DNA from: a bacterium | GTDB lineage: Bacteria > UBA8248 | Length of the DNA: 64,000 nt | Direction: 5' to 3' | Assembly: GCA_965213625.1 (NCBI GenBank) | Contig: CBDBZU010000004.1 | Span: forward strand, 3,648,001-3,712,000 | Shown: positions 18,478 to 19,599 of the stretch, one piece after another | Layout of the letters: each line of letters opens with the position of its first letter | How positions within the stretch are numbered: position 1 is the stretch's first letter | Position numbers and translations under genes: made by a program | Notes under the pieces: generated by a model | Database searches by the model: none | The model's input: only the letters and a program-made list of their open reading frames with translations | What the model was told of the DNA's origin: nothing

Positions 18478-19599
18478 TCAAACGCCGCTTTTCGCTTTTT
18501 TGAGCGTCGCGACGTTCACCGGGTGCGCGTTGCGGCGGCGCTTGTCGACGCGGACGCCTAGGCGCGCGGCATCGGTGATACTCAGGCCCGCTTCCTGCAA
18601 TTCTTTCCGGCTGAACCCCTTGCCGGGCCGCCAGCTCCCACGGGCATCTCTTACGAGAGGGAGGAATCCGTTATCCGAGGGCTCTTCCGGCTGCTCCAGA
18701 GGCGCTTCGGCGGCTACCGGGCCAGCCTCGGGCGCGCGCTCCTCGGGGATTTCCGGCTCAAGAGCTGTCGCCTCCACGACACTTTCGGCTATCTCCAAGA
18801 CGGCTTCTTCGTTTTCGAGTGGTAGTTCTTCCTCATCCGGCGACTCTTCCGGCGAGGCTTCCAATTCAGCCTCGGTCAGCGTCTCGAGCTCGAGTCCATC
18901 TTCCTCATACGGCGCTGCATCACTCTGCGGCAACGGCTCATGCGGCGAGACATCCTTGACCGGCGCCGCTGGGGGTTCCTCGGCCCCCTGAACGATTTCG
19001 TCCATGGCTTCCGGATCACTCTCTTGAGGAGTTTCCGTCTCGGGCGGGGAAGTCTCAACAACGCTTTCGAGCTGGAGTTCTTCAACTTCCTGAACAGGAT
19101 CGTCCGCAGCTTCCGGATCGATCGCTTGAGAGATTCCCGGCGCGGGCGCAGACGCTTCCGCTACACTTTCCGCTGCGACTGAGGGTGCTCCATCATCTTG
19201 CTCAGACGTCTCCGCCTCACCCAGCGACGCTTCTGATTCCGTTTCGGTCAACGAATCGAGTTCGAGGCCATATTCCTCGAACGGAGCGGCTTCAAGAGAT
19301 GGTTCCGGCGCATCCGGCGTCTCATCCGAGACTGGCGCCGTCAACGATTCCATGGCGGGGGCAGGGTCGCTATCACCAGCGTCCGCTCCGTTTGCCGAAT
19401 CCATGCGAGGCGGCTCATCGGCAGCCAGCAGTTCCAATTCTTGATGAGAGTCATAGCCGCTGTCCTCCGTATCTCCCGCCGTATAAGGAACTCCCGGCTC
19501 GATGGCCGAAGGAGGCGGAATTTCGTAAGTTTCTTCTTCCGGCTCGGCAGAGGTGGAACCCTTGCGACGCGTTATACGGCTCAAAAAATTTTTCTTCAT
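18478..19599 (-). CDS. Acidic low-complexity protein with a C-terminal ribosomal L13e-like domain
   Basis: C-terminus [44 protein letters not shown] matches the recalled eL13 consensus R.GRGFS..EL..AG......R.LG..VD.RR.....NV..LK; RBS GAGGGTGG. Confidence 0.8.
   Translation of the reverse strand: [373 protein letters not shown]

Follow-up and report, generated by a model that had tools for sequence, protein, structure and literature searches.

The protein eL13 (L13e) is treated as a marker of the archaeal and eukaryotic ribosome, and it has an N-terminal loop and a first helix that reach into the core of the subunit, according to the available part of one account (10.1101/2021.01.31.429008). 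A 64,000-nucleotide stretch from a bacterium of the UBA8248 lineage (contig CBDBZU010000004.1, positions 3,648,001 to 3,712,000 of the forward strand; this whole stretch is called the window below) carries a gene whose product ends in the core of eL13, fused behind about 310 residues that are predicted to be disordered. Here the core is a free-standing, mobile bacterial module. The bare domain match is already on record, through database labels that read ‘ribosomal protein L13e’. What is new, as far as found, is a family with an acidic arm that is confined, in its phylum, to one genus, together with a second family, spread over many phyla, in which the same module ends the partner protein of a helicase. 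The window protein belongs to the first family, the short forms; members of the second are called long forms.

The described system that bears most closely on the long forms is Druantia type III, which consists of DruH and DruE, DruH being a protein of the YjiT family with immunoglobulin (Ig)-like domains and a C-terminal region that binds single-stranded DNA (available text of 10.64898/2026.05.12.722862 and 10.64898/2026.05.12.724681). Like DruH, the long forms are large partners encoded just upstream of DruE, often overlapping it, and they combine a chain of Ig-like domains with a C-terminal domain. The likeness holds for the long forms only; the window protein has no Ig-like chain, no adjoining DruE and no match to the DruH profile. 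No L13e-like domain is mentioned in the available portions of four papers (10.64898/2026.05.12.722862, 10.64898/2026.05.12.724681, PMC13316683 and 10.1101/2025.09.15.676423), the three Druantia papers amongst them do not name a ribosomal protein either, and the word ‘ribosomal’ is absent from the available text of 10.64898/2026.05.13.724758. Given the Ig-like chain and the DruE neighbour on the one hand and the silence of these texts about an L13e-like domain on the other, the long forms look like an undescribed partner analogous to DruH. Full-text literature searches found no published description of a bacterial L13e-like domain, and the papers on prokaryotic ribosomal proteins that were checked for ‘L13e’ place it in archaea only; nor did literature searches find a published description of the long-form proteins.

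The gene is an open reading frame (ORF) of 373 codons plus stop with an ATG start, on the minus strand at 18478-19599. Its product has three parts, whose identity can be given with near certainty: a basic N-terminal peptide (residues 1-16, 19552-19599), an acidic arm (residues 17-310, 18670-19551) and the eL13-like module (residues 311-373, 18481-18669), all on the minus strand. The C-terminus is, by sequence and predicted fold, a true homologue of the eL13 core. The Pfam family Ribosomal_L13e (PF01294), the sole Pfam family reported for the protein, matches residues 323-360 at 34.5 bits against a cut-off of 24.9 (E 2.5e-8), covering model positions 62-99 of 180. The NCBIfam model of archaeal L13e (NF008914) matches at E 2e-16 over positions 26-74 of 83, with 59.4 bits, below its equivalog cut-off of 96. 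In a phmmer search of PDB sequences, eL13 of a microsporidian (E 4e-8) and of Pyrobaculum calidifontis (E 7e-7) were followed by dozens of eukaryotic eL13 chains. The AlphaFold2 model, built on 43 aligned relatives, folds the module into a beta-hairpin, two short helices, a strand and a long C-terminal helix. Foldseek matched this to PDB chains that were, in all 50 matches listed, from ribosome or pre-60S entries (root-mean-square deviation 2.4-3.5 A, 61-79 columns, 25-40% identity), and many of them are the chains named eL13 in the phmmer search. Module and eL13 have in common the signature G-[KR]-G-F-S...E-L...A-G...[VI]-D-x-R-R-R...N-V...L. The best ribosomal matches of the module are archaeal L13e, and it lies nearer to these than to eukaryotic eL13. 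The architecture of full-length eL13 was not found: only the core is present, and the N-terminal segment that enters the subunit core has no counterpart.

A sequence-only reading of this stretch had described the ORF, an E/D/P/A-rich arm and an L13e-like C-terminus, and these descriptions stand, in the translation (which contains the C-terminal peptide that it quoted), in the composition and predicted disorder of the arm and in the profile and structure matches just given. Two points need correction: the module had been put at about 62 residues (18478-18666), and the folded module is 63 residues long (18481-18669), slightly longer than the Pfam match; and its affinity is with archaeal L13e more than with eukaryotic eL13. 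Another candidate for homology was rejected. The DotG/IcmE protein (PDB 7muc_AG) and the repeat proteins P0219 and P0224 resemble the module only in the stretch G-F-S-x-x-E-L-x-x-A-G, which recalls their tandem short repeats in weak, multi-copy matches; P0219 and P0224 were excluded from the second module tree.

In charge the three parts differ strongly. The module carries a net charge of +10 and the N-terminal peptide one of +6, whilst the arm, about 294 residues made up of 22% E, 15% A, 14% P and 8% D, carries -86. Over most of residues 1-310 the predicted local distance difference test score (pLDDT) of the model is below 50, against 79-95 for residues 311-373, and there is no folded region, and hence no Ig-like chain, before residue 311; the ESM Atlas gave no usable match to residues 1-310. 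Across the 43 aligned sequences conserved positions fall in four places, namely the N-terminal peptide, Y-E-I-P-P-P-x-A-I, L-E-L-L-A, and the Y-G motif with the module. The N-terminal peptide keeps K3, S7, R8, R11, R12 and K13 with few or no exceptions. At the start of the arm lies the motif YEIPPPSAI (residues 25-33, 19501-19527, minus strand), with P28 invariant and P29, P30, A32 and I33 at least 90% conserved. An acidic-aromatic motif of the type A-P-F/Y-E-E-Y-G-L-D-L-E-x-L occurs twice in the arm, at residues 104-117 (19249-19290, minus strand) and at residues 228-241 (18877-18918, minus strand). In the first copy, Y110 never varies, and G111, E115 and L117 each reach 90% conservation or more; the second copy came from a motif search, and the DNA-level repeats of its region form family D1. 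Candidate matches of the arm motifs to eukaryotic short linear motifs (EVH1, clathrin box, dileucine and the LC3-interacting region) were dropped, as none fits the consensus by eye.

The order of a basic N-terminal peptide and then an acidic region is also that of the A-domain of FtsY, a likeness to which the sequence-only reading had drawn attention. It holds for the layout, in which a basic peptide precedes a long acidic stretch of low complexity. It does not extend further: the GTPase (NG) domain of the signal recognition particle type was not found in the window protein, for which Pfam and NCBIfam report L13e alone, and the helix proposed for the N-terminal peptide is unsupported by the model, which has no helix there and a pLDDT of about 54.

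An exhaustive profile-free search with the last 75 residues of the window protein gave 410 representatives at E up to 1e-3. Outside the short forms these are of two main kinds, small proteins of 55-180 residues and proteins of about 575-1000 residues with the module at the C-terminus. The small proteins, where named, are archaeal L13e (Thorarchaeota, Odinarchaeia, Hecatellales and a ‘Thermococci archaeon’). The best match outside the short-form family is a long form of 689 residues (P0117; 63% identity, 69.6 bits). In a profile alignment of short against long forms (hhalign), 66 columns were aligned with a probability of 99.5 and 47% identity, including the beta-hairpin that lies outside the Pfam match. 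In a tree of the module made by a quick method (122 rows, 62 columns; amongst the top 150 representatives used, no sequence was confirmed as eukaryotic), the short forms make up one group, with a support of 99 in the Shimodaira-Hasegawa-like approximate likelihood ratio test (SH-aLRT). That group is nested in one of 68 rows (SH-aLRT 90) that holds 36 long forms, 15 short forms, 15 other rows (for the most part fragments or shorter forms) and 2 small proteins, and 43 of the 45 rows of archaeal small proteins fall outside it. The approximately unbiased (AU) test rejected neither a single clade of short and long forms (p-AU 0.72) nor a clade of long forms alone (p-AU 0.79). The module of the window protein is probably akin to that of the defence partners. 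The module also ends other architectures (P0188, P0193, P0126, P0206, P0231, P0245 and P0192), amongst them a helical protein of 433 residues, a protein of 210 residues in which, by eye, a hydrophobic N-terminus and a coiled-coil-like stretch are seen, and a more distant group in which IPRLKWR replaces the LPRIWWRL motif of the long forms.

A scan of one genome per species located 42 long-form loci (L029-L070), all in metagenome-assembled genomes, whose titles name Poribacteria, Latescibacterota, Dehalococcoidia, several groups of Acidobacteriota, Alpha- and Gammaproteobacteria, Limisphaerales, Binatia, Gemmatimonadetes, Nitrospinales and Ca. Oxydemutator. When all ORFs of these loci were clustered, the sole neighbour family in common was a helicase, encoded directly downstream on the same strand in 38 of the 42; in most loci its ORF either overlaps that of the long form or begins no more than about 200 nt beyond it. 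The three helicases that were scanned have the DEAD, Helicase_C and MZB/DUF1998 domains, and they match the PADLOC DruE1 model at E 1e-154 to 1e-160. The cassette (examples are L029:10001-17183, L044:9938-16625 and L054:9923-16475) thus consists of a partner of about 700-970 residues with the LPRIWWRL motif and then a DruE-like helicase of the YprA family of about 1400 residues.

The long forms are well conserved in an alignment of 20 sequences (A1) and, apart from L13e, match no other Pfam, NCBIfam or PADLOC model. In a model of one, residues 2-16 form an N-terminal helix (pLDDT 83) and residues 22-272 are disordered; a beta-rich body follows at 284-716 (pLDDT about 90), and the module closes the chain. 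For this body of about 430 residues the top PDB matches are multi-Ig proteins with low TM-scores, and it is best described as a generic Ig-like chain. The regions ahead of the globular part are 156-469 residues long and range in net charge from +6 to -99. The window protein and the long forms have in common the C-terminal module, an N-terminal basic or amphipathic peptide and a long disordered stretch, and differ in that the window protein has neither the beta-rich body nor the helicase partner. A long form with its DruE-like helicase looks like an undescribed subtype akin to Druantia type III. The main bacterial carriers of the module are in this way partners of DruE-like helicases that lie outside current defence profiles, and they point to such a Druantia-like subtype; since canonical DruH binds single-stranded DNA at its C-terminal end (10.64898/2026.05.12.722862, available text), the module also gives a testable idea of what that end of the partner may do. 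In one ‘Nitrospinales bacterium’ locus (L059:9824-11785) the long form is split into two ORFs of 343 and 283 residues ahead of an intact DruE-like gene, which may be a broken gene or a sequencing error.

The short forms form a family of 112 proteins with the same layout, found by a word-indexed search; 104 of them have a precomputed PF01294 match. By simple end patterns 91 are complete, and all complete members keep the layout, with lengths of 230-541 residues, arms of differing length and arm net charges of -122 to -25. The number of acidic-aromatic motifs varies amongst these 91, with no copy in three, one in 42, two in 38 and three in eight. Named members, three from a ‘Nitrospinae bacterium’ and one from a ‘Rhodospirillaceae bacterium’, are labelled ‘ribosomal protein L13e’; with the eL13 core occurring as a bacterial module, such automatic labels on these genes are misleading.

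Amongst 51 genomes of the phylum, PF01294 matches occur in 18, all of one genus (g1): the genome of the window (G000) and 17 of the 22 others. The remaining five congeners, the 28 genomes of 14 other genera of the phylum and 14 control genomes have no match, the last as expected from the claim that eL13 is absent from ordinary bacteria. Each matching genome has one to three matches. G000 has two, the second being a protein of 317 residues (PF01294 score 29.4 bits) encoded at another locus, upstream of an ATP-binding cassette (ABC) ATPase gene, and the neighbours of the two paralogues have no conserved link in common. A patchy, genus-restricted pattern with paralogues is not that of a ribosome component.

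The locus tells the same story. The gene lies between a tRNA-Asn (GTT) at 17959-18033 on the plus strand, identified by ARAGORN and Rfam, and an alpha/beta-hydrolase gene, in a variable slot that the 3' end of the tRNA borders. By blastn breakpoints the slot in the window is 1776 bp long (18034-19809, no strand assigned), and in a congener that lacks the gene (G033, locus L074) only 187 bp separate tRNA and hydrolase; its tRNA-Asn is identical over all 75 bases. In the related locus L030 the slot is occupied instead by a long form and its DruE-like helicase, together with genes for an M48 peptidase and a nucleoside transporter. Synteny between L030 and the window extends to either side of the slot, at 78-79% identity (window 8006-12911 with L030 5966-9610, and 19799-22224 with L030 18754-21182), and an 83-base alignment that includes the tRNA is 98.8% identical. 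Within one genus the slot is thus met in three states: 187 bp only (L074), short form (window 17951-19809), and defence pair plus two genes (L030:9704-18754). In a further genome of the genus (G023) the hydrolase orthologue has a DruE-like gene at a distance of 2.8 kb. The window gene is therefore a genus-restricted accessory gene in a tRNA-adjacent variable slot. A repeat search found no direct repeat of the tRNA 3' end flanking the gene, and so no visible att-like scar. On the other side of the tRNA, genes for a tripartite ATP-independent periplasmic (TRAP) transporter (DctP/Q/M) and an NmrA-like protein (window 12912-17950) have no counterpart in L030, which makes a second indel. An ORF at L030 8398-9402 was considered as the counterpart on the left flank and rejected, as it is not homologous to the NmrA-like gene of the window; the synteny rests on blastn.

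That the gene is real, and not the product of a chimeric assembly of the kind the sequence-only reading had wished to exclude, follows from 11 other genomes of the genus, in each of which an orthologue has the same flanking genes, and from contigs of three runs (one study, three samples), which tile 17900-20700 with zero differences and even depth, though these runs may include the source sample. The gene is under purifying selection: in 11 pairwise comparisons of orthologues or paralogues, the ratio of non-synonymous to synonymous substitution (dN/dS) was 0.22-0.55 for N-terminal part, arm and module. In 10 of the 11, dS itself was lower in the module (0.23-0.68) than in the arm (0.08-1.18); gene conversion among the paralogues is one possible cause, and a constraint at the level of the DNA or RNA is another. 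A scan of 17800-20000 gave two promoter-like sites (0.8 expected), neither of them in a position to drive the gene, and three terminator-like sites (2.7 expected).

We favour a reading in which the window protein derives from, or is related to, the partner subunit of a Druantia-III-like defence pair, in a trimmed form that works independently of the helicase. The basic module would most likely bind RNA or single-stranded DNA through the conserved G-K-G-F-S and D-K-R-R-R elements that it has in common with eL13; such binding is suggested because the core of eL13, whose conserved elements the module retains, is buried in rRNA. The polyanionic arm could compete with nucleic acid within the molecule, mimic it or serve as a spacer, and the basic N-terminal peptide may be a membrane anchor or may fold back onto the arm. 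The cellular role would lie in the handling of foreign or own nucleic acid, in defence or its regulation, and outside translation. As the genome of the window has no DruE-like gene, any role in defence would have to be independent of the helicase. Taken as a whole, a non-ribosomal, helicase-independent relative of the Druantia-III-like partner with a nucleic-acid-binding module modulated by the arm is a serious possibility that falls a little short of an even chance. Its parts differ in strength: the window protein is very probably not a component of the ribosome, whilst gating of nucleic-acid binding by the arm is a tentative idea. An origin of the module outside Bacteria is plausible from its resemblance to archaeal L13e. 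The earlier proposal of inter-domain transfer and repurposing survives to that extent, but not as a one-off event, since the module is part of a wider bacterial set.

Several observations weigh against the reading as a trimmed partner. Short and long forms align over the C-terminal 66 columns only, and a tree of 62 columns cannot separate a nested from a sister placement of the short forms. Neither form matches any PADLOC model; for the window protein and five long forms, no PADLOC family, DruH included, was found at E 0.01. In G000 there is no long form, the best match to a DruE-like gene has 24 bits, and there is no match at E 1e-10; a full-length DruE-like gene occurs in only two of the 23 genomes of the genus, with fragments in one more. 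The genes around the window gene form no defence island. In the slot, the short form is oriented opposite to the long form of L030, so that the slot is read as a shared variable hotspot and not as evidence that a long form decayed where it stood. The hydrophobic moment of the N-terminal peptide is modest, about 0.55 (0.54-0.59) at a mean hydrophobicity of about -0.5 (-0.44 to -0.72), and the model of the window protein has no helix there. Binding to nucleic acid, membrane or ribosome is itself inferential.

The reading can be carried further. In a broader scenario, which is possible but doubtful, bacteria took over the core of an archaeal ribosomal protein as a C-terminal module, for sensing nucleic acid or for docking the helicase, in an undescribed defence family of two genes that resembles Druantia; this family spread horizontally amongst a dozen phyla of probably animal-associated bacteria, and the window protein is a helicase-free offshoot that serves as a membrane-proximal sensor, regulator or decoy. 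For work on either version, the window protein is a natural minimal construct, comprising module, acidic arm and basic peptide, for asking what the module binds and whether the arm gates it.

Four alternatives stand beside this reading. If the arm were the active part, the protein would be a regulator, decoy or nucleic-acid mimic that soaks up basic nucleic-acid-binding proteins of phages, of mobile elements or of the cell, with the module serving only for targeting. The charge of the arm, strongly negative here and negative in every complete relative, would suit such a role, as would purifying selection on the arm and the presence of a defence pair in the same slot of a relative (L030). A decoy aimed at phages or mobile elements finds little echo in their sequences, however: scans with both alignments found no relative of the short or long form in 2.9 million viral contigs, and tblastn found no match to the module in 50,697 phage records or 72,556 plasmids. 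The arm is also predicted to be disordered, unlike the rigid DNA mimic of the Ocr type. We consider this alternative unlikely.

A place in translation was the main proposal of the sequence-only reading, which had suggested a lineage-specific ribosome factor. On this account the protein would be ribosome-associated, or a bacterial analogue of eL13, with the module docked on the rRNA of the large subunit and the arm tethering ribosomes or RNA to the membrane. The proposal draws on the homology of the module to an rRNA-binding ribosomal protein core, on the conservation of its basic residues and on the layout that recalls the FtsY A-domain. It fits poorly with a gene that lies in a tRNA-adjacent indel, is missing from five of 22 congeners and from 28 genomes of 14 other genera, and is represented by one to three matches where it does occur. 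The protein matches no more of the Pfam model than positions 62-99 of 180, and it has no counterpart of the eL13 loop and helix that enter the subunit (10.1101/2021.01.31.429008, available part). The nearest relatives of its module are the partners of defence helicases. The patchy distribution, the paralogues and the missing rest of eL13 all count against it, and a ribosomal role seems improbable.

Equally improbable is a host-directed, ‘eukaryote-like’ protein of sponge symbionts, whose arm motifs, the proline run and the acidic-aromatic repeats, would act together with the module on proteins of the host or on its ribosome biogenesis. What brings it to mind is a 14.4-kb contig in a run labelled ‘sponge metagenome’ (X5), whose copy of the gene is about 93% identical and is likewise flanked by the tRNA and the hydrolase, along with the conserved short linear motifs of the arm and the titles of the long-form genomes (Poribacteria, Latescibacterota, Dehalococcoidia, Acidobacteriota, Gemmatimonadetes, Binatia, Nitrospinales and others). 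This mixture of taxa is typical of sponge microbiomes, from which those records may come. No signal peptide or recognisable secretion signal is seen in the window protein, however, whose sequence turns acidic after its basic start. Amongst eL13 proteins the archaeal ones are nearer to the module than the eukaryotic ones, its relatives have a DNA helicase of the cytoplasm as their partner, and the suggested habitat rests on one run of one study and on the taxa typical of sponges; a sponge association is a lead and not a finding. The X5 contig also shows how the spacers around the gene turn over whilst the gene is kept: 1160 other letters stand in place of the 180 bp between gene start and hydrolase (window 19620-19801), and 48 letters in place of the 437 bp between the tRNA and the stop of the gene.

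That the gene is a decaying, functionless remnant of a long-form defence gene is highly improbable, for although the window protein has the two ends of the long-form layout minus the Ig-like body and its gene sits where a relative has the full pair, the gene is intact in 18 of the 23 genomes of the genus with N-terminal peptide, motifs and module conserved, dN/dS is 0.22-0.55 in every part, paralogues are kept at a second locus and the orientation in the common slot is opposite to that of the long form.

The wider window consists of ordinary metabolic genes. Besides the hydrolase, the TRAP transporter and the NmrA-like protein, the further neighbours of the gene include a flavin mononucleotide (FMN) reductase and a luciferase-like monooxygenase, and Rfam found nothing but the tRNA in the window. 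An autotransporter of 1238 residues with a C-terminal beta-domain is encoded at 41764-45480. Two long ORFs, at 32871-35417 (848 residues) and 22607-24190 (527 residues), have no Pfam match at E 1e-5; the shorter of these overlaps an ORF on the opposite strand and may be spurious.

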